Origin: a virus
Strand: one strand, 5' to 3'
Length of the DNA stretch: 37,523 nucleotides
Virus record (IMG/VR): IMGVR_UViG_3300006000_000001
Location: 1 to 37,523 of that record
Positions 1 to 37,523 of this stretch are shown one piece after another. A program made the position numbers and the translations under genes. Under the pieces are notes generated by a model. It searched no databases and was not told where the DNA came from. It saw nothing but the letters and a program-made list of their open reading frames with translations. Position 1 is the stretch's first letter. Each line of letters starts with the position of its first letter.

Positions 1-120
1 GCGTCCTAAATCAGCCTCTGCGGAGCGGATAAAATCAATCTGCTCATCGCTGAGAGTGTAGCTCATCACTTACCCTCCGCGTCGTCTAGTATCTTATCTG
101 CTTGCAGCCACCAGTCATCA
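1..120. repeat. Terminal direct repeat, left copy (identical to 37404..37523). It marks the wrap-around of a circular or terminally redundant 37,403-bp phage genome
   Basis: Read by eye: nt 1..120 (gcgtcctaaatcagcc...ccagtcatca) recur exactly at 37404..37523, and the identity runs to both window edges. Positions 1..66 duplicate the 5' end of CDS 37209..37469. Confidence 0.9.
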
Positions 121-1291: not shown

Positions 1292-1663
1292 TCAAGCCGC
1301 TTTGCGGCGTGGACGCTTGCGATCGGCGCGGACACTAAAGGCCATACTACGACCGCGCAGATAGTCTGTGTCGCTACCGGTTAGCCAATGGTTGGTGTAT
1401 CGCCCGAGTGCCTTAACCCCGGTCCACTTGTCGCGGACCGCCTCAACGGCGTCATTGTAGGACTCGTACTCGCCATGCGCCCGGATCGCTACGCCGTCGA
1501 TCTCCCCGACAGGTCCGTCGATCTCGGTGTGCCCATATAGGTGCGGTTGCGTGGTCTCGATCGTGACCCTGCGGCCACCTACTTGTATCCCGGATTCGCG
1601 CCAGTGGCGGGGGATATTGGGGCCAACTAACTCGCGCTCGATAACGTAGTAATTAGTGCTCAT
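1292..1663 (-). CDS. hypothetical early protein (123 aa) with Arg/Lys-rich tail
   Basis: There is an ATGA start/stop overlap with the upstream gene. The N-terminus YYVIERELVGP is shared with the 541..726 product. The C-terminus is RADRKRPRRKAA. Confidence 0.6.
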   Translation of the reverse strand: MSTNYYVIERELVGPNIPRHWRESGIQVGGRRVTIETTQPHLYGHTEIDGPVGEIDGVAIRAHGEYESYNDAVEAVRDKWTGVKALGRYTNHWLTGSDTDYLRGRSMAFSVRADRKRPRRKAA

Positions 1664-2809: not shown

Positions 2810-3103
2810 TTAGACCGACATGTCGTCCCACTCTAGGCGGTGGCAATCCGGGTGATCGTAATAGCGTAAGTAGCTATCCATGCCGCAGAGCATGATATGC
2901 TTGGCGACCATCCGCACGCGCGTTTCCATCGCGTAGTCCCAAAGCGCCTCCGGGACGAGGTCCTCGTCTAATTCTGCTTTGTAGTCCTCTATTGCGCTGA
3001 GGACTGATCGCTTGATGTCTTGGTTAGTCGTATCTAATGCGATTTGATCGCACAGGATTTCTCGCGCCCGCTCTTGGGATTCGTAGTAATCTAGTTTGGT
3101 CAT
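2810..3103 (-). CDS. first early-leftward gene, hypothetical acidic protein (97 aa)
   Basis: I trimmed track ORF 2810..3349 to ATG 3103, because a strong promoter (3177..3204) and a 5'-UTR hairpin lie inside the longer ORF. Confidence 0.6.
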   Translation of the reverse strand: MTKLDYYESQERAREILCDQIALDTTNQDIKRSVLSAIEDYKAELDEDLVPEALWDYAMETRVRMVAKHIMLCGMDSYLRYYDHPDCHRLEWDDMSV

Positions 3104-3120
3104 GGCTCTGTCTCTCGTTG

Positions 3121-3139
3121 GCCCGCCGCGCTGGCGGGC
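3121..3139 (-). promoter_or_regulatory. 5'-UTR hairpin of the first early transcript
   Basis: The sequence is GCCCGCC-5 nt loop-GGCGGGC (7 GC pairs). It lies between the predicted transcription start (~3170) and ATG 3103. Confidence 0.5.
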
Positions 3140-3176
3140 GGTTGTAATGCTTATTTCCCCGCTGACGTTGGAGATA

Positions 3177-3204
3177 AGTATAACATCAATTGACAAGGTG
3201 TCAA
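3177..3204 (-). promoter_or_regulatory. sigma70-like early-leftward promoter with palindromic operator over the -35
   Basis: On the minus strand: TTGACA (3204..3199), 16 nt spacer, TATACT (3182..3177). A perfect inverted repeat TTGACAaggTGTCAA at 3190..3204 overlaps the -35. Confidence 0.7.
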
Positions 3205-3374
3205 GACATTTTTTGATTTTTTTTTGCATTTTTTTCCCTGCCCAGCGGTCCGGGCGAGCTGACCAGGGCGCATATATATAAGGAGTCGTTTTTTCTTGAC
3301 GCCTGTCTGTAAGACGTTGTAATGTATAGCATTTTGTGGTTATTCCCATTATGTAATCCTGTATAGGAATATTA

Positions 3375-3487: not shown

Positions 3488-3517
3488 TTGACAAACCAAG
3501 AAAGTGCGGATTACTAT
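3488..3517 (+). promoter_or_regulatory. sigma70-like rightward promoter for the plus-strand module
   Basis: TTGACA (3488..3493), 18 nt spacer, TACTAT (3512..3517). It lies 30 nt upstream of ATG 3547, which is preceded by AGGGG. Confidence 0.65.
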
Positions 3518-3546: not shown

Positions 3547-3852
3547 ATGTTACATAGTCGCAACAAGATAGGTGCTTACATCCGGCGGGAAAGACGCCGA
3601 CTTGGCAAGTCCATGCAGTCCTTAGGTGATTGTGTCAGCGTATCGCGGCAATATATATCTCAGATCGAGCTAGGCCAGGTAGCCATACCGGCAGGTAGCG
3701 ATCTGCTTATCGCCTTAGCGGATGCTCTCTGCCTGGACGTAGACGATTTACATGTTAGGGAGGGCCGCCTCCCGGATGACATGGTGCGCAATCTGCGTGA
3801 TGTGGTCCGTGTATACCGCGAGCATCAAGTTAAGGAGCGGATAAGTGCCTAA
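3547..3852 (+). CDS. XRE-family helix-turn-helix transcriptional regulator (101 aa)
   Basis: The HTH signature LGKSMQSLGDCVSVSRQYISQIELGQ is typical of Cro/CI/XRE proteins. It is the first gene of the rightward operon, divergent from the early-leftward promoter. Confidence 0.8.
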   Translation: MLHSRNKIGAYIRRERRRLGKSMQSLGDCVSVSRQYISQIELGQVAIPAGSDLLIALADALCLDVDDLHVREGRLPDDMVRNLRDVVRVYREHQVKERISA

Positions 3853-4177
3853 GATCGAAAAGGTAATCGATTCCTGGTTCAAACTTTGGGACGATTGGGA
3901 CCTCTGGGAGGATTTCGACGAGGACGGTCCGGATGACCCATTGAATGATCTCATCGGAAGGAGAATTGGGAGGAATACAAGCAATATCATCGTAGACAGT
4001 TATGCCTCCTTGCTTAGCGAGGAAGACTATATGACCAATACGGCAAGTCAATGTATTGATGACATATCCAGCTCCGTCAAGATGGAGTATGATCTATACA
4101 TAGATAGAAAAGCCGTTTTGGATGTTGTATTGAATGAGAAAAGACTCTATAGAGAGGATTATGAAAGATATGCCTAA
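3845..4177 (+). CDS. hypothetical protein, very acidic N-terminal half (110 aa)
   Basis: A GTG start overlaps the previous stop. It contains WFKLWDDWDLWEDFDEDGPDDPLNDL. It looks AT-richer than the early-left arm by eye. Confidence 0.5.
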   Translation: MPKIEKVIDSWFKLWDDWDLWEDFDEDGPDDPLNDLIGRRIGRNTSNIIVDSYASLLSEEDYMTNTASQCIDDISSSVKMEYDLYIDRKAVLDVVLNEKRLYREDYERYA

Positions 4178-4436
4178 GCAGGTGTTACTTAACTATGAAG
4201 ATTCGTATACTGTGGCTTACGAGTATATCCTTGGAGCCATGCACGGAGAATGGGTAGATTGGCCGAATGTCGGAGACGACGAATCCGACATTGAAGCTCT
4301 TTTCCACGGGACGGACATTGCGGCATGGAACCTTGATGAGACTTTGGAATCTTGCCACATTGAAATAAACAATAAGGCCCTCACTACGGCCATGCTTGAT
4401 CTGCGTAGTGAGGCGTTAGGGGATAAATATAAATGA
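4161..4436 (+). CDS. hypothetical acidic protein (91 aa)
   Basis: I moved the start to ATG 4161, with AGAGAGGA upstream (track start 4134). Confidence 0.5.
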   Translation: MKDMPKQVLLNYEDSYTVAYEYILGAMHGEWVDWPNVGDDESDIEALFHGTDIAAWNLDETLESCHIEINNKALTTAMLDLRSEALGDKYK

Positions 4437-4717
4437 TAGAAATCAAGAGAACCAGCCGAGTCGGACTGGAGTCTGCGCGATTACGTTTACCTTTGGAGAA
4501 AATGAAAATGATTAAGGACCGCACGAAAGAAGAGTTGGTGAAATTCCGCGATGAGCTGACCGAGGTCTTGAACTTGGTCCGTCAAGACAAGATCAGGATG
4601 TTTTGCTCGGAGAGCACCAGTGCCCTTGATGTGGAGATAGCAAGGGCTGAGTATTTTATTGTCAATGCAATTGGAAGGAAAATTGACAATATGATTGACT
4701 ACAAGGAGGGGAGGTAA
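4433..4717 (+). CDS. hypothetical protein (94 aa)
   Basis: There is an ATGA overlap with the previous stop. The sequence is helical and charged. Confidence 0.55.
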   Translation: MIEIKRTSRVGLESARLRLPLEKMKMIKDRTKEELVKFRDELTEVLNLVRQDKIRMFCSESTSALDVEIARAEYFIVNAIGRKIDNMIDYKEGR

Positions 4718-4721
4718 CGCC

Positions 4722-4970
4722 ATGCACGTTAAAAGGCGACAAGCAATCAAAGATTTTGATCAGGAATGGGACCGTATATTGGATACGGTAGAGGACTTTC
4801 TGACTAGGGTTGAAAAATGGGACGGAGGCTCATCGTTTATCCCTCCGATCAAAATGAGCGAGATTTTTTGGCGTCAATTAACGCCACATCCAAGGACAAC
4901 CGGTCTTGTTATGTCGGTCGAGGTAAAAGAATTCACGACCGGAGGCGTGCGCCGGTTTGAAGAAGATTAG
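4722..4970 (+). CDS. hypothetical protein (82 aa)
   Basis: I moved the start to ATG 4722, preceded by GGAGGGGAGG (track start 4695). Confidence 0.55.
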   Translation: MHVKRRQAIKDFDQEWDRILDTVEDFLTRVEKWDGGSSFIPPIKMSEIFWRQLTPHPRTTGLVMSVEVKEFTTGGVRRFEED

Positions 4971-4981
4971 GACTATTTCTA

Positions 4982-5257
4982 ATGTCATTCAAACGAACTA
5001 AATACCCGAGAATCTACCTGATTGAAATGCCGGGTACGTCCACCGAGATTTCCGGTGAGGTCCGGCGTGAGATCATGGTTGTCAAGTGCAAGCTACACGG
5101 CAGTTACCCGGACGTTAAAAGTGCCCTGGCCGACGCAAATAAAAAATGGTTTAGGATCACCAAGGGTGAGATTCAAGGTGCGTGCCGGATGTCTAGGCTT
5201 TGGGTTTCCGATCGTAAGGAGTCAGACCATGAAGAACAGAAAATATCTCCGTCCTAA
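4982..5257 (+). CDS. hypothetical protein (91 aa)
   Basis: The ORF begins 12 nt after the previous stop. No family recognised. Confidence 0.5.
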   Translation: MSFKRTKYPRIYLIEMPGTSTEISGEVRREIMVVKCKLHGSYPDVKSALADANKKWFRITKGEIQGACRMSRLWVSDRKESDHEEQKISPS

Positions 5258-5414
5258 CCCGACTATGGGCGATGTGCACGAATGGATGGGGGCGTTTTGG
5301 AGAGCGATTGGTCAATTGGAGTGCATGAGCGATCCTGCGTATCGAGATGGATTTACAGATCAGGAAAGGGAATCTGCTCGGGAGCAAGTCATTAAGATTC
5401 AAAGTGAATTTTGA
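5229..5414 (+). CDS. hypothetical protein (61 aa)
   Basis: This is the internal ATG 5229 of track ORF 5022..5414, preceded by AGGAG. Its stop abuts the exonuclease start (TGAtATG). Confidence 0.45.
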   Translation: MKNRKYLRPNPTMGDVHEWMGAFWRAIGQLECMSDPAYRDGFTDQERESAREQVIKIQSEF

Positions 5415-5415
5415 T

Positions 5416-6369
5416 ATGTCCACTGAATATATTAAAACTGAAAGCAAGGAAGAATGGCTTGCGCTACGAGCAAAGGACGTGACCAGCACGGAGTCTGCCG
5501 CTCTGTTCGGGCTCAGCCCCTACCATACGGAATTTGATCTATTCCACCGCAAGCGAGATGGGCGGGTCGTAGAAATACCGGAGAATGAAAGGATGCGGGC
5601 CGGAACGTATCTAGAGCCTGCCATTGCCGAATGGGCATCGGATGAGATCGGCTGCCATGTACAGAGATTGAATGCGTATTGCCGGGACGGGGAAGCGAGG
5701 ATCGGGGCTAGCTTTGACTATCAGATCACGAACGGGAAGCTGGCCGGAAGGATATTGGAGATTAAAAATGTGGCCTTTGACCAACGCTACAAATGGGAAA
5801 ACGAGGAAGGCGAGCTTGAGCCGCCACCGCACATTGAAGTGCAGGTCCAACATCAGTTGGAGCTAACGCAACGGCCTGGTGCCCACATTGCCGTGCTGTT
5901 CGGCGGTAATGATCTTAACCTGATCCCAGTATCGAGAATTCCCAGAATTGGCCTGGGTCTACGGAACCGGATTAAGCGGTTTTGGAGTGATGTTGATTCC
6001 GGGCGTGAGCCGGAGCCGGACTTCGAGCGGGACGCCGATTTTATAACGTCAATCCACCAGATGTCCGGCGATGAAATCCTGAAGGTCGATGAGGATAGCG
6101 AGATATGGTCGCTCATGAAAGGCTATCAGGCCGCCAGGGACAACGCAAAGGCTCACACGGCGTCCGCCGAATCGATCAAGGCCAAGGTACTGCATCTCAT
6201 CGGAGATGGCGTGTGCAAGGTTCTAGGGGGGAATCTAACGCTATCCTGTGGGATGGTGAAGGACACGGAGCCAACCCGGATAACCCAGGATATGATAGGA
6301 AAAACCTATGGAGGAAAGCGTGGGCATAGGAATTTCCGAGTAACCGAGATGAAACCCAATGCCAAATAA
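5416..6369 (+). CDS. YqaJ-type viral recombinase exonuclease (lambda Exo-like, PD-(D/E)XK)
   Basis: The N-terminal TSTESAALFGLSPYHTEFDLFHRK resembles the YqaJ-domain signature, and ILEIKNV fits the E-x-K nuclease motif. The gene lies directly upstream of recT. I moved the start to ATG 5416. Confidence 0.8.
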   Translation: MSTEYIKTESKEEWLALRAKDVTSTESAALFGLSPYHTEFDLFHRKRDGRVVEIPENERMRAGTYLEPAIAEWASDEIGCHVQRLNAYCRDGEARIGASFDYQITNGKLAGRILEIKNVAFDQRYKWENEEGELEPPPHIEVQVQHQLELTQRPGAHIAVLFGGNDLNLIPVSRIPRIGLGLRNRIKRFWSDVDSGREPEPDFERDADFITSIHQMSGDEILKVDEDSEIWSLMKGYQAARDNAKAHTASAESIKAKVLHLIGDGVCKVLGGNLTLSCGMVKDTEPTRITQDMIGKTYGGKRGHRNFRVTEMKPNAK

Positions 6370-7249
6370 AATGATCTCTGCCCAAGCCGAGGATTTACGC
6401 CGCGACCTAGTGCCGGTCGTTAACGGATTCGACAGCGCGTTGCCGGGCAACATAACGGCTAGGCAGTTTGCCCGTTGTGTGGTTACCGCAGCCATGCGCA
6501 GTCCATCCCTATTCGGGTGCGATCGAGCGAGTCTATACCTAGCGTGCCAGAGAGCCGCCGAGGATGGGTTGATGCCGGACGGTGTGGAGGCCGCTATAAT
6601 TCCGTATCAGAAGAAAGCAACCTACGTCCCTATGGTTGGTGGCCTGCTCAAGCGTATCCATAACGCAGGGATCATTGAATGGATCACTGCGCAGAAAATA
6701 ATGGATAAGGATACCTTTCGGTTCGATCCTGCGACCGGGAAGCCGCCAGAGCATATCGTTGACTGGTTCGGCGATCGAGGGAATTTGAGAGGCGTCTATG
6801 CTGTAGCTAAGAAATATCGCAGCAAAAGCGTGTTCTGCGTCGTGCTGAATCGAAAGGAAATCGATGCCGCCAAAGATTTCAGCATGAAGAATAAGCGGGA
6901 CAAGAACAATCCTGATCTACCCTGGAACTCCCGGTATGAGGAAATGGCTTGCAAGACGGCGATTCGACGACTTTACAAGCTCCTGCCTAGTAGCGCGTCC
7001 GTAACTAACATCTTCGTGAACGAGGACGCGCCTTACAACAGCGAGAAGGTAGTTGAAGGCGTGCCCGTCGATACACCACCTACAAAGCCGAGAAAGAGCC
7101 TAGCGGCGGAGATTGTCGAGGCGGAAGCCGGGCCGACACCTGAAGAAGAGAGCACACCTTATCAAGTAGGCCCCGACGACCCAGTGAACGATGAAGAGTT
7201 CTGGAACAACATCGAACCAGAGGTAAACACGAATGCAGATACTCCCTAG
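6359..7249 (+). CDS. recT: RecT-family single-strand annealing protein
   Basis: The central region AEDGLMPDGVEAAIIPYQKKATYVPMVGGLLKRIHNAG and CKTAIRRLYKLLP match the RecT family as I recall it. The gene is paired with the exonuclease and has an acidic Pro/Glu-rich tail. An alternative start is at 6371. Confidence 0.8.
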   Translation: MPNKMISAQAEDLRRDLVPVVNGFDSALPGNITARQFARCVVTAAMRSPSLFGCDRASLYLACQRAAEDGLMPDGVEAAIIPYQKKATYVPMVGGLLKRIHNAGIIEWITAQKIMDKDTFRFDPATGKPPEHIVDWFGDRGNLRGVYAVAKKYRSKSVFCVVLNRKEIDAAKDFSMKNKRDKNNPDLPWNSRYEEMACKTAIRRLYKLLPSSASVTNIFVNEDAPYNSEKVVEGVPVDTPPTKPRKSLAAEIVEAEAGPTPEEESTPYQVGPDDPVNDEEFWNNIEPEVNTNADTP

Positions 7250-7463
7250 TCTAGGGGACACCCTGGCCAGTCTCAGAATTGGCCGGGGAATGACTCAAAT
7301 GGAGCTTGCGGTAAAAACCGGCCTACATCCATCACATATTAGTAACTATGAGCGTGGCACTCACGTCCCTCGTTGTGTAAACCTAATCAAGCTGGCCGAT
7401 GCTTTTGAAGTGAGCACCGAGTACCTACTAAACGCAATGAGGAATGTACCCAATGATCAGTAA
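7233..7463 (+). CDS. XRE-family HTH protein (76 aa)
   Basis: The HTH signature is MTQMELAVKTGLHPSHISNYERG. The ORF overlaps the recT end. Confidence 0.75.
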   Translation: MQILPSLGDTLASLRIGRGMTQMELAVKTGLHPSHISNYERGTHVPRCVNLIKLADAFEVSTEYLLNAMRNVPNDQ

Positions 7464-8100
7464 GCACATAGGGCCAGGCAACGGAAATGTGAATGGCATT
7501 CCATGTGTGCCTGGGCGTATATCTTCTACAAGAAGATCACTTGGGATGTCTGTATTGGAATTAGTAGAGAGATCGCAGTATTCTTCCACCAACTCGATTA
7601 GAAACATAGAAAGCGGAAGAAGAAACCCATCCCTCTCTGGGCTTATGAGTTTGGCCGAGGCTCTAAATGTATCTGTGGAGTACCTGACCGGGGAAGACAG
7701 TGCCAACAAGGTCACCGTGAGGGTGCCGAAGGTCATTCCGAATCCTGAGGTTCCCAGGAATCTCCCAGATATGAAGGTCTTCCGACGTAGGCTTACATCC
7801 GCGCGTGAAGAGCTTGGATACACTAGCCTTGATCTGGCTCAGATGACCTGCCTGTCGGAATCTACCGTGAGGAGCGTCGAGAACGGGGATAGTGGGACAT
7901 CAATCCGTGGCCTTGTATCTCTCGCTATTGCGCTAGGAGTAACAACCGACTACTTGCTGGGTCTCGACCGCATCCAGCCGAGGAAACCGAACAGGCAAGC
8001 AAATGGTAAAGTCGAAAAAGACTTTGGCACTTTGCAACTCGTCGAGCTGCTCAACGAGCTTAGTTCCCGCTGCCAGGAAGTTGCCAGTTCCATGACGTGA
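7444..8100 (+). CDS. tandem double-HTH (2 x XRE domain) DNA-binding protein (218 aa)
   Basis: There are two HTH units, LGMSVLELVERSQYSSTNSIRNIESG and LGYTSLDLAQMTCLSESTVRSVENG. Each is followed by a (L/A)AxALxV(S/T)x(E/D)YL(T/L)G helix. Confidence 0.75.
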   Translation: MYPMISKHIGPGNGNVNGIPCVPGRISSTRRSLGMSVLELVERSQYSSTNSIRNIESGRRNPSLSGLMSLAEALNVSVEYLTGEDSANKVTVRVPKVIPNPEVPRNLPDMKVFRRRLTSAREELGYTSLDLAQMTCLSESTVRSVENGDSGTSIRGLVSLAIALGVTTDYLLGLDRIQPRKPNRQANGKVEKDFGTLQLVELLNELSSRCQEVASSMT

Positions 8101-8122
8101 TCGGGCGCACAGATAAGGTAAT

Positions 8123-8166
8123 AATCCTTTCGTTAGCGATCCCATTACGAAAGGATTTGCCCTTTT
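8123..8166 (+). terminator. stem-loop (weak terminator or attenuator) between the double-HTH gene and ruvC
   Basis: A 10-bp stem, aatcctttcg (8123..8132) with cgaaaggatt (8148..8157), is followed by tgcccTTTT. The U-run is not adjacent to the stem, so it is weak as a terminator. Confidence 0.35.
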
Positions 8167-8186
8167 ACTCTCGTTAGAGAGAGAAA

Positions 8187-8672
8187 ATGAGTAAAGTAAG
8201 AATCCTCGGAATCGACCCAGGATCACGGATTACTGGGTATGGCCTTATCGATGTATCAACAAAAGGGATATATCACGTCCATAGCGGCACTATCGAGTTT
8301 TACAATGATGAGGTATTCCCAACAAGGATTGCCTCTTTCTGTGGAGAGCTATCCGATATTAAAGCGGAATATCTGCCGGACGTTCTCGCCGTAGAAAGCC
8401 TCATTCTGGTTCGTGGTGTTAGCGCGGCCATGAAGATCGCACAGGCGCGCGGGGCGGCTATATGCGGTGTATATAGTTCAAATATGGATTTTGCCGAATA
8501 CACTCCGATGCAGATAAAGAAGGCCGTAGCGGGCACCGGGAAGGCTTCTAAGGCCGATGTGCAGTCAGCCGTTAGGGCGGCTCTCGATCTACACTTTATG
8601 CCGTCAAAAGACGAAGCGGACGCCCTGGCGGTTGCTTTGTGTCATGCCCATGTTCTCCCTGATCTCACCTAA
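8187..8672 (+). CDS. ruvC: crossover junction endodeoxyribonuclease RuvC (Holliday junction resolvase)
   Basis: The sequence aligns by eye with E. coli RuvC along its length: ILGIDPGSRITGYGLI, AVESL...KIAQARGAA, EYTPMQIKKAVAGTGKASKADVQ, DEADALAVALCHAH. Confidence 0.88.
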   Translation: MSKVRILGIDPGSRITGYGLIDVSTKGIYHVHSGTIEFYNDEVFPTRIASFCGELSDIKAEYLPDVLAVESLILVRGVSAAMKIAQARGAAICGVYSSNMDFAEYTPMQIKKAVAGTGKASKADVQSAVRAALDLHFMPSKDEADALAVALCHAHVLPDLT

Positions 8673-8674
8673 CA

Positions 8675-8756
8675 AAAAGAAAGCCCGCTGTTGGCGCAGC
8701 AGGCTTTTTGTGTGATTCCGAACTGGATAGTCGGAAATCTTAATACAAACTTCAGC
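8675..8756 (-). ncRNA. candidate ~80-nt phage-encoded small RNA (no ORF)
   Basis: The region lies between a near-consensus promoter (8762..8789) and the terminator hairpin. It has no AUG in any frame. It contains an internal 6-bp hairpin (8716..8721 with 8731..8736) and an A/U-rich 5' stretch. The ends are estimates. Confidence 0.45.
8682..8715. terminator. bidirectional intrinsic terminator shared by the ruvC operon, the late operon and the candidate sRNA
   Basis: The stem agcccgctg (8682..8690) pairs with cagcaggct (8697..8705) with one mismatch. It is followed by TTTTTGTGTG on the plus strand and by TTCTTTTTG on the minus strand. Confidence 0.7.
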
Positions 8757-8761
8757 TCTCT

Positions 8762-8789
8762 ATTATAGAGAGCGCTCTCAAAAAGTCAA
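8762..8789 (-). promoter_or_regulatory. near-consensus sigma70 promoter embedded in nested palindromes
   Basis: On the minus strand: TTGACT (8789..8784), 16 nt spacer, TATAAT (8767..8762). The palindromes GCTCTCtattataGAGAGC (8755..8773) and GAGAGCGCTCTC (8768..8779) cover the -10 and the spacer. Confidence 0.65.
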
Positions 8790-8932
8790 GACTTTTTTCT
8801 ACCCTTGCCTTTCCCTCGATACCCGTTGGCATAGGCGGCCCTTCCTTGCCGCCCCGCCTGCTCCCTTGTGGGGAAAATCTTTCCGTGATTACCCCATCGG
8901 TATTTGTTTGGACCTAGTTTTCGTACCGGCAT
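8786..8932 (-). CDS. possible 48-aa very basic micro-ORF downstream of the late operon (doubtful)
   Basis: Product: MPVRKLGPNKYRWGNHGKIFPTREQAGRQGRAAYANGYRGKGKGRKKS. The ATG lies 11 nt after the stop at 8944 with no SD. The stop lies inside the -35 of the sRNA promoter. It is below the ORF-track size cutoff. Confidence 0.2.
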   Translation of the reverse strand: MPVRKLGPNKYRWGNHGKIFPTREQAGRQGRAAYANGYRGKGKGRKKS

Positions 8933-8943
8933 AGCGGTTAGAT

Positions 8944-9936
8944 CTACCCGTAGATCGGGAATGGGGCGGTCGGATAAATGCGTATCCGAGTGGATGGCCC
9001 GAAAACTATAGACCGACTCCGACGAGTCGTGTCAACAAGCTCAATCCGAAAGAAGCACCCGTCGATAAGGAAAAAATTCCAGGCATAACGGTCTGTCGTG
9101 TCGAATGGGTCTGCCGGAAGATTGCCGCCTATCGTGTAGTTGATTAGGCCGGTAACATCATGTTCGGCGTCCTCTGTGCGGCCTTCGCGCTTAATTTGGT
9201 CGAAGGGCTTTAGCCCGGACAACTGGTTGCGGCGATCCCGTGCGTCAAGCATATCTCTGGTACGCACCCAATCCATTGTGCTCTGTAGCTCGCCCGTGAT
9301 TTTATTTGAAACCCACCTGCTTAATTTGCCGTTTTCGACTCGGTAAGTATCGTAATATTGAACATACGATAAACTTGGGAACGCCCCAGTATCTTCCCTG
9401 GTATCCACCGGGGACATAGGCCATCCCCAAAAGCTAACTTCACGAATGGTCGGATATGTAAAGGTTAGCGCGCCACCCTGTATCTCAATTTCAACCTTGT
9501 TAAAATAACCCCTAAATCGGTTCTTTGGCGCGCCAATGGCTTTCTCATCTACATCATAATGCAGCTTATGGGTAACGATGTTAATATCTTCATTCATCGC
9601 CTTGAAAAAGGCCGCTTTAAAATCACCAGTTACGTAGACACGGCTGCATCCGTAGGATGGATCATTGTTAATAAACATCCTGGCGCAATGGAATTTGCCG
9701 AAATATGACCAATGGTAATGTGCGCTTTGCTGGTAACTATTTTTTGCGCTTTCAAAACTACCATGAACGGAATGGTACCCGAACCTATACGGGACTGTGG
9801 AATGAATATTCCAGTAATTATCCTGGCTCCCAACGCTAGCGATCGTAAATGACGCATCATCGCTAACCTGTTGCCCCGCAAACCCTGCGGGTGCTTTATA
9901 CGACGGAATCTCAGGTATCAATATTTGATCGTTCAT
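8944..9936 (-). CDS. last late gene: 330-aa protein of unknown function, tandem paralogue of the 9933..10901 product
   Basis: Shared blocks are NRFRGYF/NRLRGTF, EVSFWGWPMSPVD/EVCFWGYPNAPID, ITGLINYT/ITGLIDYT and GCFFRIEL/GCFFRIDL. There is an ATGA overlap with the upstream gene. Confidence 0.8.
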   Translation of the reverse strand: MNDQILIPEIPSYKAPAGFAGQQVSDDASFTIASVGSQDNYWNIHSTVPYRFGYHSVHGSFESAKNSYQQSAHYHWSYFGKFHCARMFINNDPSYGCSRVYVTGDFKAAFFKAMNEDINIVTHKLHYDVDEKAIGAPKNRFRGYFNKVEIEIQGGALTFTYPTIREVSFWGWPMSPVDTREDTGAFPSLSYVQYYDTYRVENGKLSRWVSNKITGELQSTMDWVRTRDMLDARDRRNQLSGLKPFDQIKREGRTEDAEHDVTGLINYTIGGNLPADPFDTTDRYAWNFFLIDGCFFRIELVDTTRRSRSIVFGPSTRIRIYPTAPFPIYG

Positions 9937-10901
9937 AGATAATTCATCGCTTCATAAGGAAATTCATTAGCTTCTTCCGCACCTCGTATGTTCCCGAAAA
10001 AGTGCCGGATCGGTATATCATCGTCATTCTGCGCAAAAGGCAGGGTGGCCCCCCCGTCAAGACGGAGCCGTGTAAATGGAGCCCGGATCGTGGTGCGGGT
10101 GCGGTACCACTTATCAAAAAGATCGATGCGGAAAAAACACCCTGTGATATAGAGGAACCTCCATTTCGAAGCGAAGAACGAAGGGTAATCTATGTCTTCG
10201 GTATAATCGATCAGACCAGTTATTGGAGATCTGTCTGGCTGTGTCGCAGGGATATCCGTGTCATGTTGAGAGATGTCTACGTCAGCTAGACCACTGGCGG
10301 TCTTCCTTCCCTCTGGGTCTTTAGAGTCTTTGGGTCGATAATAATCCTCAATGCGCTTAGTCCAATAGCGATGATAGTGAGTGTCGTTTTTACCCGTGTT
10401 TCGGTACACATCGATTGGGGCATTCGGATAGCCCCAAAAACAAACCTCATGAAACCCAGGGGTTTGGAATTGGTACCAACCTCCAGGTAACCAGATATGA
10501 ATCGTTCCAAAGGTTCCGCGCAAGCGATTCTTGGGGTACTTGCTTTCATCAATCCAGTAAACGCCTAATTTATTTTTAATAGATTCTTCTGGTACATCGC
10601 CTGTCAAGGACAGCTCACGGAAGCTGCCATAAGAATCAATCAATGCAGTGCCATAGTTATTATCATTATTTATCTGGGCGACGATCCGCCGAATATTTCC
10701 GGTTACTTTATTAAGATTACCTTCTGCGGATTCTGTTTTGATATTATAACCATAGGCCCTAGCCGCGCGTAAGCGATAACTATTGCCTGATGTTACCTCC
10801 AAACCATGCGGTCCGACATCAGGTTTGATTTCCCCTTCCATTGGCGGATTGGATACAGCCACCATATGGTTGAAACCTCGGTCTAAAATGACGTGTTCCA
10901 T
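9933..10901 (-). CDS. 322-aa protein of unknown function, tandem paralogue of the 8944..9936 product
   Basis: I set the start at ATG 10901, with AAGG upstream (track GTG 10916). The paralogy blocks are as listed for 8944..9936. Confidence 0.8.
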   Translation of the reverse strand: MEHVILDRGFNHMVAVSNPPMEGEIKPDVGPHGLEVTSGNSYRLRAARAYGYNIKTESAEGNLNKVTGNIRRIVAQINNDNNYGTALIDSYGSFRELSLTGDVPEESIKNKLGVYWIDESKYPKNRLRGTFGTIHIWLPGGWYQFQTPGFHEVCFWGYPNAPIDVYRNTGKNDTHYHRYWTKRIEDYYRPKDSKDPEGRKTASGLADVDISQHDTDIPATQPDRSPITGLIDYTEDIDYPSFFASKWRFLYITGCFFRIDLFDKWYRTRTTIRAPFTRLRLDGGATLPFAQNDDDIPIRHFFGNIRGAEEANEFPYEAMNYL

Positions 10902-10909
10902 GATTAACC

Positions 10910-13081
10910 TTACCACTCGGAATTGAGTAATTCAGGGTAATCCATAGCATGGTCCGCTATGGATATAGATTCTGGGCAAAGAGCATAAAGAAAATTATAC
11001 ATATCTTCTTTATCTCCGTGACCTTTGTGACGCCAGTTCCAAAGATTCAAAGGGCCTAAACCGGAAACATCCGCTTTAAAGAAAGATCGGCACTTAGGGG
11101 CAAGCTCATTACGCAATTGCTCGGTCCCTGTAGTGCGGTTCAGGAAAGCGATCAAGTGATAATTTTTAGCGGTAAAAATACAGGAATAAAGTCCTTCCGA
11201 TATCGACTTGATAGGAATGCTCATTACCCGGAAGTCCGGTGGTTCTCCCGGTCCTTGTGGGTGCTTGCCATCAAAGAACTTGGAATCGTCTATATTGACA
11301 ATCCACAACAGGATGTTGTTTGTGCCTAATCCGGTGATATAGAATAAATAACCGAAGTCCGAATCCGATGTATCCCGTAAGCACCCACACCACCAAAGAA
11401 GATGGTGGGGCGTGGAGTTTTCACCTTCAGGGTCATTGCCGGTATGATCTTTCATCCTCCGAAAATAGGGCGGCAATGAAAAATCAACCTTGATAGTAAC
11501 GCCACGGCGGACCAAATCCCCGAAGTGTAAGAATCGGTCTGCTAGCCTCAAGTATTCTCCGGGTTGCTGCAAAATCTGCCCGTACGTCGGCAAGTAACTT
11601 GTCGGCAGATCGTTATGTTCGATCTGTAGTCCCCATACGGAGAAGTATCCTGGATTCCGATTGTGCAGGTTCTTCTCCTCAACGGCCTGTATTACGTCGG
11701 CCTGTACGGGGCAGATATCAAGGGATAACCCGTGCTTACACGATGGGAGCAGGCTGACTGAAATTCGATGCCAACCTCCCGCATATTCGACCATCGTAGT
11801 CGATGTGCACGGTATCTTCCAGTCCGTGGCTGTGCCCTCTGACGTCTCGTTGCGAATGGTGCGGTTGAGCGTCTCGAAGTCGAAGGTAACAATAACCCGC
11901 GTTTGCGGTGAAGGGTCCGAGGCTGTGGAATTATATTCCATGCGGACTTCGATTTTTTTAGAAAAAATTGGTCTCAGGAACGCGCTAAATGTAATAGGGC
12001 CTCCCTCTTGGCAAGCGATCGGATGAGGGCACCGTAACCGATCGTAGACGAGAGCCTCTCGCGGATCATCATAGGAAGAGTGGAATAGGACGTAGGAACC
12101 TTCATTCCCGGCTGGATTCTTCGGCACGGCAGTTGTGGACAACCGGAAATCCGTATTAAGGACATTCCCAGACCAAGTGCGCCCAGGCTGGGATCGCGGG
12201 AATAGATTCATGCAGGTTGCCGACTCAATCAAGCATCCGGCATCTATAACGGACCCAGAGATATAGTCGCGCCTCGGTCTTGGCATCCTGGAATCACCTA
12301 TCCCAAGGTACGGACCTTCAATCCGAAAATTAGTTGCAACCAATCCAATGTTATCAGGCTCAATCAGGGATGAACCTTCCCAAAACACCTTCATCCCGTG
12401 CTTTGGTTTCAGCGCAATGAAATCATGTGAGCCATTACCATCTTCATCCGTTTTCAGCTCACCACTTTCGATCTCTTTGTTATATTCATCGTAAAAGACA
12501 TAGGAACCATATTCGGAGGTTGGTCTGCCGCGCCACCACAATTTATACTTACTCCCATTCAGCAACGGGATATATGGTCTAATCTCATCATTTTTATTGT
12601 CTTGGTTTGTCTCACGTAGTAGATTATGCGACTGGTAACAAAGGCACCCATTTCGATCGATCATCGTGCGCGGAAACGATGATAGACGATAGCTATCATC
12701 GATGGATGGGCACGTTTGAGGGGACAATTCCCCGTAAAGATACTTTTCTCGATCAACAGGATTACGAAAGTTGATCTTATCCCAAGGTGTTTGGGAAGCC
12801 TTATTGACCTCGCCTAACCTAGTATTGTAGAGGGCCACAATATCCGTAGCGGTTGTCCCGGTTTTGTAAACCTTGGTAGCACGGATAGATAATTCATCTC
12901 CGGCGGAGAGACCACTAAATCGGACGGCACCACTATCTTCCATTTCCACAAGGATTTGCCCCTTCCCATCTTCGGGGACGCCTCCGATATACAACGCATG
13001 AGCAACATTGGATAATCCCGTCTCGTCAGACGGAGTTATATTATCTCCGCTGACGAAAAAATCTGCTCCAACAACGCTCAT
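10910..13081 (-). CDS. 723-aa putative host-recognition (fibre/spike-like) protein with a concanavalin/lectin-like domain
   Basis: GGWHRISVSL followed by FSVWGLQIEHNDLPTSYLPT (11582..11647) matches the ...vWGaQlE.g..aTSYIPT signature that I recall from phage tail-fibre and carbohydrate-binding modules. It lies in the late operon after the capsid gene. Confidence 0.5.
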   Translation of the reverse strand: MSVVGADFFVSGDNITPSDETGLSNVAHALYIGGVPEDGKGQILVEMEDSGAVRFSGLSAGDELSIRATKVYKTGTTATDIVALYNTRLGEVNKASQTPWDKINFRNPVDREKYLYGELSPQTCPSIDDSYRLSSFPRTMIDRNGCLCYQSHNLLRETNQDNKNDEIRPYIPLLNGSKYKLWWRGRPTSEYGSYVFYDEYNKEIESGELKTDEDGNGSHDFIALKPKHGMKVFWEGSSLIEPDNIGLVATNFRIEGPYLGIGDSRMPRPRRDYISGSVIDAGCLIESATCMNLFPRSQPGRTWSGNVLNTDFRLSTTAVPKNPAGNEGSYVLFHSSYDDPREALVYDRLRCPHPIACQEGGPITFSAFLRPIFSKKIEVRMEYNSTASDPSPQTRVIVTFDFETLNRTIRNETSEGTATDWKIPCTSTTMVEYAGGWHRISVSLLPSCKHGLSLDICPVQADVIQAVEEKNLHNRNPGYFSVWGLQIEHNDLPTSYLPTYGQILQQPGEYLRLADRFLHFGDLVRRGVTIKVDFSLPPYFRRMKDHTGNDPEGENSTPHHLLWWCGCLRDTSDSDFGYLFYITGLGTNNILLWIVNIDDSKFFDGKHPQGPGEPPDFRVMSIPIKSISEGLYSCIFTAKNYHLIAFLNRTTGTEQLRNELAPKCRSFFKADVSGLGPLNLWNWRHKGHGDKEDMYNFLYALCPESISIADHAMDYPELLNSEW

Positions 13082-15970: not shown

Positions 15971-18297
15971 TGCAATGATTCCCTCGGTCGTTCCAGGTAA
16001 TCGAGCACTTTTTGGTGGTCGATTTGATCCGTGCCGTGCTCTAATCCGAGCTTTATCATGTCGATAAGCATTCTCCCTTCCGCTTCGTCGCGTTTGCGGT
16101 CATCCTCCATCCGCATCTTAGCCATATCCAATTGTGCCTTCATCTGCGCCTTACCGGCCTCGGTCTGCGCTTTGATCTGCTCACCCTGTAGGTAGGCCGC
16201 ACCTTGCCCCCCGTCGCCCCCCTGGGCCTGTTGGGCCTGCTGTGATTGCTGTTTCGCCTGGGTCATCTGCGCCTCTTCCTGATCGGATAAAGCGGTGAAA
16301 TAACGGCCAGGATTAAATACCCCACTAGCCGATAGCAAGTCCGCCACACCGTTATGGATTTGTTTCGATGTAACCCGCATCATATCAGGCCGATCTTTCA
16401 TGGATTTCTGCATCCCTACCAGAGACAGTAGCATCTCCTTTTGCCCATGCTTGGAGCCTTTGCCAATACCTACATTGGGCCGCAGCTCGGCATCTTGATT
16501 CCAGGACCTGGGATCGACTTCGCCGATGCCGGTATCAACGCTAAACAATTTCACCGGGCCTTCATGATTTTCTATCGTTAGGTCATAGACCAGTTTCAGT
16601 GCGGGGACTAATCCACTCGAGACCAAATTTCTAGCCATGATTTCAAGCGGCCCCATGCCACGGTCCACGGCTGTGTCCATTGCGGATGCCGTAACATTCC
16701 GTAGCCCGGAAGGATTCATCCCGCTCCCTGCCGAATTTAAACCGATACGGTCTTCGGTCTGTCGCAGAATCCGGTCGATCGCATCCAGCGCGTGGGTGGC
16801 GATTACCGGCGTCCAAATAGGACGCACGGCGTCCTGCCTTGTAACTCGCACCATGCCACCGATTTTCTCATTGCGCAGATCGGGCATATAGCAATCGTTT
16901 TCCATAACGCTCAATTTAGGTGCATTGGTGTGGCCTATGCTATTGACATATTCGCGTTTGAGGGAGGACATAAAATCCTGATCGCCGATCAATCCCTTAG
17001 CTAAAGACCGGCCCTCAAATTTTCCGTTAATGGGAATGAGCCTGAAAATCGCATAGGGATGGTTCGATACCGGCTCCGACAAAAGTAGTTTCTTGTTGCT
17101 TCTACCGAGCAGGAACCGATGCAAATCAGCCCGCCCCGTTCCATCCTTGTCCATACGCATAAAGGCTTCGGTCAATTCAATAAGGACCATCGACCTGTCT
17201 TCATCAGACTCGTTCCTTTCACTGTCATCATAATTCAGATTAGACGTTGTAAACTGCATTCTGTCCTTTCCCTGTTCCTTCGAGGATTCGATCAATTCAT
17301 TCACGTCCTCGTGGGAAAATCCCTGAGCCAGAAGATCACCGGCACGCAAAAAAACTTTCGAGCCTACGATATAGCTGTCTTTCAGGCTACGTGCTGAACC
17401 ATCCACAAAGAAGCCGGATGCTTGATCCAGCAACTCCCATCGAACTACACCAGCGGGCCTCTCCGTCCGAATGGTAATATTATAGTTGCGGACGACCATA
17501 GGGGGCGGAGGCTCGACAGGGATACCAGCCATCGGCGCACTAGGAGCCACCCCTAACGGCCCTTGCGGGGCGACAGGGGGCATTCCCATATCGGCCCCAG
17601 GCTGTTGCTCCATCCCATCAACAGGCGTCCCCTGCGGAGGTGCTGGCAGCCCTGGAGTACCACCAGGCGTGGCTATTCCTTCCCCGACCGCAGGGGACAA
17701 AGCAGCGGATTCACCAGGTATCGGACCTTGCGGGAATCCAGGTGCGGATTCTGGAACAGGAACCTCGATTATTGAAGGCTCCAATTCTTCGGATTCGATC
17801 AATTCAGTACCTTCCTCTCCGAGCAGGAAGGCGAGATGAAACTCGTCAATATTCTTGTATTTCCGGTACTTAACTACTGGGCTATCGTTCCAATCCACTT
17901 TGACCGGGGCAAAACCACACAGCGCGGAATGTACGCCACAATCCTTGAGTAATTCATATCCGTGTCTCTCAAACTGGTCATGAATATATCTGGTGGCTTC
18001 TTCAGATTGGTTGACTTCCTTATCGTTATTCGGAATAAAAAGGGCTACTTTATCTTCCGCCGCGATCTGCCTGATAACTTCCGTAACGACGCCCTCAACA
18101 AATTCCTCAACGAGCTTATAGACGGCCTCCGACCTGCCCTCCTTGAACTTTACGTCGCACTCGCCATCATAGTACCTGTGGGCTTTTTCCCAATCCGAAT
18201 CATAAGACTCCATATGATGTTGCGCGTCCTCCACAGCGGAGGACACAATGGAGATAATCGTATCCTCGGATAGAGGTTCCTGGAATTTCTTAGCCAT
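15967..18297 (-). CDS. portal protein (776 aa) with an internal Pro/Gly-rich low-complexity insertion
   Basis: The N-terminal pattern AHRYYDGE...GRSEAVYKLVEEFVEGVVTEVIRQI...VALFIP...EEATRYIHDQF is typical of podovirus and P22-type portals as I recall them. The size and position fit. The C-terminus is Q/G-rich and charged. Confidence 0.75.
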   Translation of the reverse strand: MAKKFQEPLSEDTIISIVSSAVEDAQHHMESYDSDWEKAHRYYDGECDVKFKEGRSEAVYKLVEEFVEGVVTEVIRQIAAEDKVALFIPNNDKEVNQSEEATRYIHDQFERHGYELLKDCGVHSALCGFAPVKVDWNDSPVVKYRKYKNIDEFHLAFLLGEEGTELIESEELEPSIIEVPVPESAPGFPQGPIPGESAALSPAVGEGIATPGGTPGLPAPPQGTPVDGMEQQPGADMGMPPVAPQGPLGVAPSAPMAGIPVEPPPPMVVRNYNITIRTERPAGVVRWELLDQASGFFVDGSARSLKDSYIVGSKVFLRAGDLLAQGFSHEDVNELIESSKEQGKDRMQFTTSNLNYDDSERNESDEDRSMVLIELTEAFMRMDKDGTGRADLHRFLLGRSNKKLLLSEPVSNHPYAIFRLIPINGKFEGRSLAKGLIGDQDFMSSLKREYVNSIGHTNAPKLSVMENDCYMPDLRNEKIGGMVRVTRQDAVRPIWTPVIATHALDAIDRILRQTEDRIGLNSAGSGMNPSGLRNVTASAMDTAVDRGMGPLEIMARNLVSSGLVPALKLVYDLTIENHEGPVKLFSVDTGIGEVDPRSWNQDAELRPNVGIGKGSKHGQKEMLLSLVGMQKSMKDRPDMMRVTSKQIHNGVADLLSASGVFNPGRYFTALSDQEEAQMTQAKQQSQQAQQAQGGDGGQGAAYLQGEQIKAQTEAGKAQMKAQLDMAKMRMEDDRKRDEAEGRMLIDMIKLGLEHGTDQIDHQKVLDYLERPRESLQ

Positions 18298-19010
18298 TAG
18301 CCCACGGGAAGTATTGTGATCAGAGAATACGTCTCTACTTGACTAACCTTAGTCGCGGCACCCCACCTAGCATCAACCGCTTCTTGGCTAGTCAATGTGG
18401 AATCTAATCCCGCAGCGTGGGATTGAAGCCGTATGACATCCCCATCAGGGACCTCTATAATTGTTGAAAAAGGTATTAAAATAGTGTAGTTGGATGTGCC
18501 GGCACTATTTTTAACGACCATCGGAGTACTGATGGAACCATACGTGGTCTGGGTCCCTTTCAGCCTTGCGCGAACGATAAAATCCTTCTTGGAAGGAAAG
18601 AACGTAGTATGCCCTGATATTAAGTATTCCCCATCAGGGACGCTTATTCGCCCCGCTCCACCTTGAGATGATATATTAATGTCTGGACTAAGACTCGTGG
18701 ATCGAACAGTTGTAACCGGTCTATCAATCCATTCATCCAGCGTGAATCCTGTTACAGTTCCAGAGGAACTTTTAATAAGGCCAACATCCAAAGGTTCAGC
18801 CCCGTTGGCAGTTTCATAAAACACAGTGGCTTTCTTTATTAAACCAGAGTCATTTCGGACTTGATCTATTCCACGAATGCTATGATCTATTCCACGGATG
18901 CTATGCGCTATTTTCGGTATAGAATTAATCTCATCCGCCCCAGCCGTCACCGGCTCATCATCAATGGTCCACTCTCCCTTGTTAAATCTAGGATGGCAGG
19001 AACGAGACAT
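18297..19010 (-). CDS. tail fibre-like protein 2 (237 aa), short paralogue of the 26526..27533 product
   Basis: GEWTIDDEPVTAGADEIN aligns with GEWKVGDTAITASGAEIN, and TGFTLDEWIDR...GEYLISGHTTF...RWGAA aligns with TGFKVDEWIER...GTYLLTGHSTF...RWGKA. The start overlaps the upstream stop as TAATG. Confidence 0.6.
   Translation of the reverse strand: MSRSCHPRFNKGEWTIDDEPVTAGADEINSIPKIAHSIRGIDHSIRGIDQVRNDSGLIKKATVFYETANGAEPLDVGLIKSSSGTVTGFTLDEWIDRPVTTVRSTSLSPDINISSQGGAGRISVPDGEYLISGHTTFFPSKKDFIVRARLKGTQTTYGSISTPMVVKNSAGTSNYTILIPFSTIIEVPDGDVIRLQSHAAGLDSTLTSQEAVDARWGAATKVSQVETYSLITILPVG
18863..18904. repeat. 21-bp tandem duplication inside fibre gene 2 (encodes HSIRGID x2)
   Basis: gatctattccacgaatgctat and gatctattccacggatgctat are adjacent and differ at one base. 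Confidence 0.85.
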
Positions 19011-28139: not shown

Positions 28140-28754
28140 TCAATCCGTACCGGACATAATCTTGGCCTTGGCCTTCGTTCTCCAAGCCAGAGGCGGGTCC
28201 TTATACTTAAAGGCAGGCTCGAATTGCTGGCGCCATTGCACAAATTCAGCTAGTTTATTGGCCGACTCACGGCTACCCTTGAACTTAGGATCATTCTGGG
28301 CGATCCACAATAACTTGCTCAGGTCTCCATCAAACAGCTTGATTTCCCTGTCGCTGATCTCGGGTTGTTCAGAATCCGATAGACCGCGATCAATCAACTC
28401 CATTTCATCATCACTTACGGATTCACCCTTGGGATCTGTGAGCTTAAATTCTTCTACGTCCATGCCCTCAAGCACATCAGGGGCGACCACGTTGCGGCGA
28501 GCAACGGAGGATTCGATGCCTGACAGCCGGGTCAAGTAAGACCCAATATCCGTTGGCGAAACGGAAGATAAATAACTATACCCTCCAACACCGATACCCA
28601 AGGCACCGAGAGCGGCCATGAACAAATACCTGGATTTGTACATCTGGCTATAGGCGTTCGGATACCTGGTACTAAACCGGATCAATATATTTTTCAGCAT
28701 ATTAACCGCCAGTGCCTCGGCTATTTCCCATAATATGAAAGACAATAACCGCAT
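28140..28754 (-). CDS. hypothetical protein with one predicted transmembrane helix (204 aa)
   Basis: It has the hydrophobic segment YLFMAALGALGIGVGGYSYL followed by an acidic region. There is no clear SD, so the start is uncertain. Confidence 0.55.
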   Translation of the reverse strand: MRLLSFILWEIAEALAVNMLKNILIRFSTRYPNAYSQMYKSRYLFMAALGALGIGVGGYSYLSSVSPTDIGSYLTRLSGIESSVARRNVVAPDVLEGMDVEEFKLTDPKGESVSDDEMELIDRGLSDSEQPEISDREIKLFDGDLSKLLWIAQNDPKFKGSRESANKLAEFVQWRQQFEPAFKYKDPPLAWRTKAKAKIMSGTD

Positions 28755-28788
28755 AGCGGGCTACTTGCCCACCATGCGGACGTTACGA

Positions 28789-37208: not shown

Positions 37209-37469
37209 TTATCCAACATCGTGTGTACCCCCCGATCTCTTATCTGGGAGAGGCTCCCAGAGGACCAACCTGTACACCAGCCGCTTGACGTCTGTGTTGT
37301 AGTCCTGTAGGTGCTGATCTATGTCTGGGCTTTCTGGCCCAGGCGTAGATGCCTCTCGGATTATGATCTCTGCTGCTTCTCGGACGCACGCATTGTAGCG
37401 CGCGCGTCCTAAATCAGCCTCTGCGGAGCGGATAAAATCAATCTGCTCATCGCTGAGAGTGTAGCTCAT
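37209..37469 (-). CDS. hypothetical early protein spanning the genome junction (86 aa)
   Basis: I use ATG 37469 (equivalent to position 66), which forms a TGATG overlap with the stop of 66..287. GGAGGG lies 8 nt upstream. The track start is GTG 37472. Confidence 0.6.
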   Translation of the reverse strand: MSYTLSDEQIDFIRSAEADLGRARYNACVREAAEIIIREASTPGPESPDIDQHLQDYNTDVKRLVYRLVLWEPLPDKRSGGTHDVG

Positions 37470-37523
37470 CACTTACCCTCCGCGTCGTCTAGTATCTTAT
37501 CTGCTTGCAGCCACCAGTCATCA
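37404..37523. repeat. Terminal direct repeat, right copy (identical to 1..120)
   Basis: See the left copy. Confidence 0.9.

Follow-up and report, generated by a model that had tools for sequence, protein, structure and literature searches.

The end of the late operon and its neighbours

The stretch of viral DNA analysed here (hereafter the window) is the IMG/VR record IMGVR_UViG_3300006000_000001 over its full length of 37,523 nt. It is a circular or terminally redundant contig of ~37.4 kb from an ENA metagenome assembly, in which positions 1..120 recur at 37404..37523. The SU10-type major capsid protein encoded in it is less than 28% identical to that of any deposited phage, and no integrase was found among the scanned ORFs. 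The rightward early operon (3547..8672) codes for HTH proteins, a YqaJ-type exonuclease, RecT, two XRE proteins and RuvC; HTH proteins are encoded at 3547..3852, 7233..7463 and 7444..8100. The late structural operon, ~22 kb long, is read leftward from ~31.4 kb. The two operons converge on a short gap that contains a promoter-like site, a cluster of palindromes and a terminator hairpin (Table 1).

Table 1. Coordinates of the features in and around the convergent gap, numbered as in the window
Feature	Position	Strand	Basis or remark
ruvC, last gene of the early operon, converging on the element	8187..8672	+	Pfam RuvC, E = 3.5e-38
Candidate non-coding RNA of ~80 nt, corresponding to the distal 3′ UTR of the 48-aa late gene	8675..8756	−	5′ end inferred solely from the position of the −10
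Two-way intrinsic terminator hairpin	8680..8707	both	Terminator scan, folds, inverted repeats
Cluster of three perfect palindromes	8755..8797	both	Inverted-repeat search
−10 hexamer TATAAT	8762..8767	−	Consensus; mid-point of the 19-bp palindrome
−35 hexamer TTGACT	8784..8789	−	Contains the TGA stop codon (8788..8786) of the 48-aa ORF
Uncalled 48-aa gene, true last gene of the late operon (MPVRKLGPNKYRWGNHGKIFPTREQAGRQGRAAYANGYRGKGKGRKKS)	8932..8786	−	ORF list and homology
Gene for a 330-aa late protein in the tail-fibre neighbourhood, directly upstream of the 48-aa ORF	8944..9936	−	ORF list

On the early side of the gap, the phage RuvC is nearest (~50% identity) to cellular RuvC proteins of Gammaproteobacteria (Chromatiales, Thiodiazotropha-like MAGs) and not to phage resolvases, an affinity that may give a weak clue to the host or to the origin of the gene. 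On the late side, the 330-aa protein has a single homolog (P0002, 53–55% identity) among 5.8 billion proteins. By eye, this protein and a 327-aa late protein (9933..10916, −) look like paralogs, with the motifs FWGWP/FWGYP and GCFFRI, and neither has a Pfam or PHROG match. Elsewhere in the late operon, a very strong hairpin (28749..28779, −; 13 pairs, nine of them G–C) encloses the ATG (28754) of a 204-aa gene and could serve as an internal attenuator or as a start-codon occluder.

The gene callers applied to the source contig did not call the 48-aa ORF, which starts 11 nt past the 330-aa gene. The ORF matches phrog_31267 (E = 2.5e-4). In the sole relative of the locus, a 1.5-kb contig (L003, SRR10506966) whose flanking genes show 55% and 70% amino-acid identity, a 47-aa ortholog (1362..1505, 70% identity) occupies the same position after a homolog of the 330-aa protein. 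Identity between these two small ORFs by codon position is 0.85/0.85/0.44. The family is widespread, although in different gene contexts; it numbers 29 loci in IMG/VR and 379 proteins (E values as low as 3e-17). Because of the PHROG match, the syntenic ortholog, the distribution of identity over codon positions and the spread of the family, the 48-aa ORF is, on comparative evidence, a real, conserved gene under purifying selection. On this annotation the late operon ends at 8786, not at 8944, and the true non-coding gap is 8673..8785 (113 nt).

The product of the missed gene carries a module of ~40 aa (MPVxKVxGGYxWGxHGKVYPTxxQAExQGRAAYAxGY; also at L003 and at loci L004–L032) with no Pfam family. 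In hundreds of phages, this module stands alone with a Lys/Arg tail; elsewhere, it is fused to the N-terminus of DUF2213 proteins, NUDIX hydrolases, an ATP-dependent DNA ligase and an inorganic pyrophosphatase. AlphaFold models it as a beta-beta-alpha fold (pLDDT 77), for which there was no significant PDB match, either by sequence or by fold. Our guess is that it is a common docking or targeting module.

A promoter-like site, its palindromes and a two-way terminator

The minus strand of the gap carries TTGACT and TATAAT hexamers separated by a 16-nt spacer. The initial annotation had listed this pair among the best sigma70 matches of the window, and our promoter scan indeed ranks it first, with 11 of 12 consensus matches. 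The same annotation had placed the pair in a convergent gap past the end of the late operon. The gap is convergent as described, whereas the late operon runs on into the site, with the stop codon of the 48-aa ORF inside the −35; the candidate RNA and the 3′ UTR of the 48-aa gene therefore have the same sequence. The Lys codons of the ORF form the AAAAAAGTC stretch directly upstream of the −35. Use of TGA as the stop codon is uninformative, since 16 of the 38 genes in this genome end in it.

How unusual is such a site? In the window, four sigma70 sites reach at least 11 of 12 matches, versus 0.44 ± 0.68 expected from 200 dinucleotide shuffles (a ~9-fold enrichment), and none of the 200 shuffles reached four. 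Counted over all strengths, promoter-like sites in the window are no more frequent than expected, and the excess is confined to this strongest class. At least one site with 11 of 12 matches is present in ~35% of the shuffled genomes. By our own arithmetic at the local composition (GC 0.38), the chance of such a site is ~0.7% for the 113-nt gap, which is non-coding and a local G+C minimum (0.38), and ~10–15% for any intergenic gap of the genome.

Two of the three other sites in the strongest class (3204 and 2747, both −) fall in the divergent early control region. The same region holds a site with 10 of 12 matches at 3488 (+), which heads the early operon. With two of the strongest sites in the early control region and the 3488 site at the head of the early operon, the phage evidently depends on recognition of the TTGACA/TATAAT consensus by a host polymerase. 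The site at 8789 and the early-region promoter-like site at 3204..3177 (−) have two features in common, an A-tract motif (AAAAA(T)GTCTTGAC) and the 16-nt spacer. GTCTTGAC itself occurs five times in the window versus 0.8 expected, and three of these copies have no −10. Given the enrichment of near-consensus sites, and the motif and spacer common to an early-region promoter, a real promoter at 8789 is plausible, and pure chance is an unlikely source of the match.

Two other places in the window deserve a mention here. The near-consensus site at 3204..3177 (−) lies inside a 179-aa ORF (2810..3349, −), together with a G+C-rich hairpin (~3120..3141), and its −35 sits in the palindrome TTGACAaggTGTCAA. 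This ORF is probably called too long; translation from the in-frame ATG at 3103, behind the 3204 promoter, would yield a protein of 97 aa. A second promoter/terminator-like pair is found at 18433..18512 (+), antisense inside the late gene 18297..19010 (−). It consists of ATGACA-17-TATAAT (11 of 12 matches) and, ~20 nt further on, the hairpin AAAAUAGUG...CACUAUUUUU (fold z −2.5), and would give an antisense RNA of ~45–50 nt.

The promoter-like site is covered by three perfect inverted repeats. Nested palindromes over the −10 and the spacer (GCTCTC-tattata-GAGAGC-GCTCTC, 8755..8779) had already been described in the initial annotation and are present. They resolve into a 9+1+9 repeat at 8755..8773 (GCTCTCTAT-T-ATAGAGAGC), which is centred on the −10 and unique in the window as a 19-mer, and a 6+6 repeat at 8768..8779 (GAGAGCGCTCTC) within the spacer. 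To these we add a third, overlooked in that reading: an 8+2+8 repeat at 8780..8797 (AAAAAGTC-AA-GACTTTTT) over the −35 and the stop codon. Across the whole window, only 15 perfect palindromes have arms of 8 bp or longer, and two of these lie here, at most 25 bp apart. In RNA that reads through from the late operon, an 8-bp hairpin (GCUCUCUA-UAA-UAGAGAGC) is predicted. The cluster could be either an operator-like DNA site or a set of hairpins in the 3′ UTR of the late mRNA.

The palindromes had also been taken to suggest a dimeric regulator that switches the promoter, with the phage XRE proteins as candidates. We find no support for this proposal: nothing links the palindromes to the XRE proteins, and paired GAGAGC/GCTCTC half-sites occur nowhere else in the genome. 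Because the half-sites are unpaired elsewhere and absent from the early control region, there is likewise no support for a regulator common to the early promoters. A LexA box was considered and rejected by inspection, as the spacing of the palindrome is unlike CTGT-N8-ACAG.

Downstream of the promoter-like site, by ~80 nt, the initial annotation had noted a GC-rich terminator hairpin (8682..8705). This hairpin is confirmed with slightly wider bounds (8707..8680, −): it has 11 pairs, six of them G–C, followed by a CUUUUUGUUA tail, and is the top-ranked terminator-like site in the window. It is the sole terminator downstream of the 48-aa ORF, ~78 nt past the stop codon. Read on the plus strand, 8680..8707 followed by TTGTGTG is also called as a terminator by the scan. 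The tails are therefore CUUUUUGUUA on the minus strand (8679..8670) and UUGUGUG on the plus strand (8708..8714), of which the minus-strand U-tail is interrupted (UUUCUUUUUG), with a longest U run of 5. The locus has the components of a two-way intrinsic terminator: its G+C-rich hairpin lies between an A-tract and a T-tract, each strand has a T-run, and the flanking genes converge. Judged from this arrangement, the terminator is common to the early (+) and late (−) operons and is needed by both, regardless of any sRNA.

The predicted RNA and the search for its relatives

A transcript that starts just past the −10 and runs to the terminator was folded as an 84-nt RNA. In the predicted fold, the first 16 nt (8755..8740) are A/U-rich and unpaired; a small hairpin (8739..8714) comes next, and then the terminator. 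The MFE is −25.6 kcal/mol (z = −3.3 versus shuffles). This is the layout that had been predicted in the initial annotation (an A/U-rich single-stranded 5′ part, a small hairpin and a terminator hairpin), and the transcript quoted there as lacking an AUG matches the sequence and contains no ATG.

The functional labels given to the RNA, 'trans-acting' and 'Hfq-type', fare less well. The terminator hairpin is strong and there are A/U-rich single-stranded stretches, but in place of the long uninterrupted U-tail expected of an Hfq-dependent sRNA there is the interrupted tail UUUCUUUUUG. An interrupted U-tail of this kind is slightly suboptimal for Hfq binding, and the label 'Hfq-type' is unsupported by any test. 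Target prediction with the 5′ end, which had been suggested as a check, was run on phage mRNAs: the 5′ 28–30 nt of the RNA were compared with phage transcripts and translation-initiation regions, with shuffled seeds as controls. Over all phage transcripts, the best duplex of the 30-nt seed reached −26.0 kcal/mol versus −24.8 ± 1.9 for the shuffles, and 18 of 60 shuffles were as good. At phage translation-initiation regions, the best score was −17.2 versus −18.6 ± 2.0. With nothing in the phage above the shuffled controls, the label 'trans-acting' is unsupported.

Known RNA families and other classes of small element offer no better match. Rfam 15 gave no hit at the gathering threshold in the whole window, and no match by E-value threshold; the best sub-threshold match in 8600..8900 scored 20.8 bits against a threshold of 55 and was driven by the terminator. 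A type I toxin-antitoxin arrangement was considered for the 25-aa ORF at 8691..8768 (+) and rejected, as its TTG start falls within the terminator hairpin, no promoter precedes it and its product is not membrane-like.

Relatives of the locus were sought at the level of both nucleotides and proteins. Searches with blastn of 8100..9500 and 8660..8800 against phages and plasmids returned nothing, or terminator-sized chance matches. RuvC, the 330-aa protein and an alignment of the two known members of its family found no relatives in viral or metagenome contigs, and a degenerate KLGPNKYxWG pattern had no match in metagenome or genome contigs. The homologs of RuvC, at ~50% identity, come from cells and are uninformative on synteny. 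Neither the exact seed 20-mer nor the 19-mer palindrome had a match in viral contigs. The seed 20-mer did match three unrelated MAGs (genome contigs), and these matches were rejected as chance, the flanks being unrelated.

Conservation can therefore be followed in L003, the single relative described above. There, TAGACA stands at the stop codon, with no −10 at any spacing of 16–21 nt. The 49 nt beyond the stop codon give a local alignment score of 12 versus 12.8 ± 2.1 for shuffles, in a distant relative with 44% identity at third codon positions. Downstream, L003 carries a different palindrome of its own (CTATCGACGATAG). The initial annotation had named conservation of the hexamers in relatives as a test of the sRNA, and they are not conserved in this one distant contig, which offers 49 nt of downstream sequence. 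Since third codon positions are already only 44% identical, the mismatch is weak evidence against conservation, short of a refutation.

Competing readings and known systems

The reading that we prefer, tentatively and at a little under an even chance, is that a sigma70 promoter makes a discrete, candidate non-coding RNA of ~80 nt, nested where the late operon ends. Transcription would start at ~8757–8755 (−) from a host-type sigma70 promoter whose −35 overlaps the stop codon of the 48-aa ORF, the last late gene, and would stop at ~8675 at the common two-way terminator, resulting in an RNA of ~80 nt. Read-through from the late operon would yield the same sequence as a 3′ UTR, and cleavage in an A/U-rich single-stranded stretch of this UTR could release a shorter RNA. 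The promoter may be gated by a symmetric repressor that binds the palindromes centred on the −10 and the −35. Any regulation by the RNA would involve pairing via its unstructured 16–25-nt 5′ end, most likely with host mRNAs.

Several observations speak for such an sRNA, among them the quality and rarity of the hexamers, the motif in common with the 3204 site and a stable fold that leaves the 5′ end free. The strongest terminator of the window follows the putative promoter by ~80 nt on the same strand, with no ATG between them, and each of the two hexamers has a perfect palindrome centred on it, an arrangement seldom found in the genome. Against it stands the fact that part of the promoter match is coding-derived, as Lys codons supply the A-tract and a Ser-stop pair supplies TCTTGA. 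In addition, heavy late transcription across the promoter could occlude it, and neither the comparison with L003, nor the phage target search, nor Rfam lends support.

Of comparable weight, and a real possibility in its own right, is that the 113-nt gap is a plain operon end, made up of the 3′ UTR of the 48-aa gene and the two-way terminator, with no independent functional RNA. The promoter likeness would then be incidental, arising from Lys, Ser and stop codons plus the A/T-rich apex of a hairpin, and the palindromes would be RNA hairpins of the UTR (e.g. for 3′-end protection) or functionless. The position of the stop codon in the −35 and the Lys-encoded A-tract upstream agree with this, as do a terminator that closes both operons and works on both strands, the 8-bp hairpin predicted in the read-through RNA, and the frequency with which shuffled genomes hold at least one site with 11 of 12 matches (~35%). 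It also agrees with L003, which has neither a −10 nor downstream similarity, though it does have its own palindrome, and with the search results, in which no phage targets and no RNA family were found. Weighing on the other side, chance would place such a site in just this gap with a probability below 1% (our own arithmetic, local composition), and near-consensus sigma70 sequences are active as a rule. Furthermore, a motif and spacer common to the 3204 promoter, and palindromes centred exactly on the hexamers, would be unexpected from a by-product of coding and termination.

A more elaborate form of the preferred sRNA reading, which we consider unlikely, is that the RNA is made in two ways. 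It would come from the operator-gated sigma70 promoter before late transcription, and later from processing of the 3′ UTR of the 22-kb late operon, so that the same seed would act on host mRNAs in both phases, under a regulator of the unique GCTCTC/GAGAGC palindromes.

It is similarly improbable that the promoter is real, the RNA a by-product and the function in cis. Polymerase and a palindrome-bound protein would then insulate the late genes from antisense read-through out of the early operon, or act by transcriptional interference. Such a role would suit the convergent geometry, in which 117 nt separate the promoter and the stop codon of ruvC, the extent of the palindrome cluster, which spans the entire promoter, and the failure to detect a trans target in the phage. 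However, the two-way terminator already insulates both operons, nothing specific speaks in favour of a cis role, and most phages need no such dedicated device. The weakest proposal is a cis-antisense RNA like lambda OOP, which would pair with the converging early (ruvC) mRNA at its 3′ end and cause it to be cleaved: the size of ~80 nt and the convergent arrangement recall pO-oop-tO (PMC5869508) and complementarity to the early mRNA is perfect over 8675..8712, but we rate this role as very improbable because the overlap (~38 nt) is the common terminator hairpin and its tails only, folded on both RNAs, and the RNA would end at ~8675, ~3 nt short of the ruvC stop codon (8670..8672), with no coding overlap.

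The sRNA is thus a reasonable candidate, unproven and less distinctive than first presented. The most immediately useful outcome is a correction of the annotation: a conserved 48-aa late gene had been missed, and what appeared to be an orphan intergenic RNA corresponds to its 3′ UTR.

Set beside known systems, the locus resembles a two-way terminator between convergent operons in its G+C-rich hairpin, its flanking A-tract and T-tract and the terminator called on both strands. Taken alone, such a terminator leaves the near-consensus promoter and the palindrome cluster, 55–110 nt away, unexplained. Lambda OOP, likewise short and leftward, has a promoter and a terminator of its own (pO-oop-tO) and is convergent with an early gene (PMC5869508). 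It differs in that OOP overlaps 52 nt of the cII coding sequence (PMC5869508), whereas the candidate would overlap the early mRNA at the terminator only. The OOP promoter region also contains a repressor (LexA) site (PMC5869508), whereas the palindrome described here is, by inspection, no LexA box (CTGT-N8-ACAG).

Phage-encoded, Hfq-dependent sRNAs on record include lambda PreS, LPR2 and 6S, as well as StxS; some such sRNAs map within or next to the late operon and target host mRNAs (bioRxiv 10.1101/2024.10.31.621285). The candidate resembles lambda PreS/LPR1, LPR2 and 6S RNA, StxS and VpdS as a short phage transcript with a terminator and a U-tail (bioRxiv 10.1101/2024.10.31.621285), but has no sequence or Rfam similarity to the phage Hfq-dependent sRNAs. 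PreS is conserved in hundreds of sequences, in contrast to the candidate, which has no detectable homolog.

The closest parallels are bacterial sRNAs nested at the 3′ ends of genes. Salmonella DapZ has a promoter located immediately before the stop codon of dapB, and its terminator is also that of the mRNA (PMC9438474). DapZ, Vibrio MicX and E. coli MicL each have a promoter at or overlapping the end of an upstream coding sequence, use the Rho-independent terminator of the parental gene, and yield RNAs of ~80 nt with a free 5′ seed region (PMC9438474). At the level of sequence, the locus likewise has a promoter-like site at the end of the upstream coding sequence, followed by the terminator of the parental mRNA. 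These sRNAs come with mapped 5′ ends, Hfq binding, conserved seeds and targets, whereas the candidate is known from its sequence, has one relative without a −10, and has a phage late gene as its parental gene. If real, an sRNA from this deep-branching, uncultured podophage-like genome would join the short list of phage-encoded riboregulators and would provide a phage case of the DapZ-type layout, in which the promoter sits in the stop codon and the terminator is common to sRNA and mRNA.
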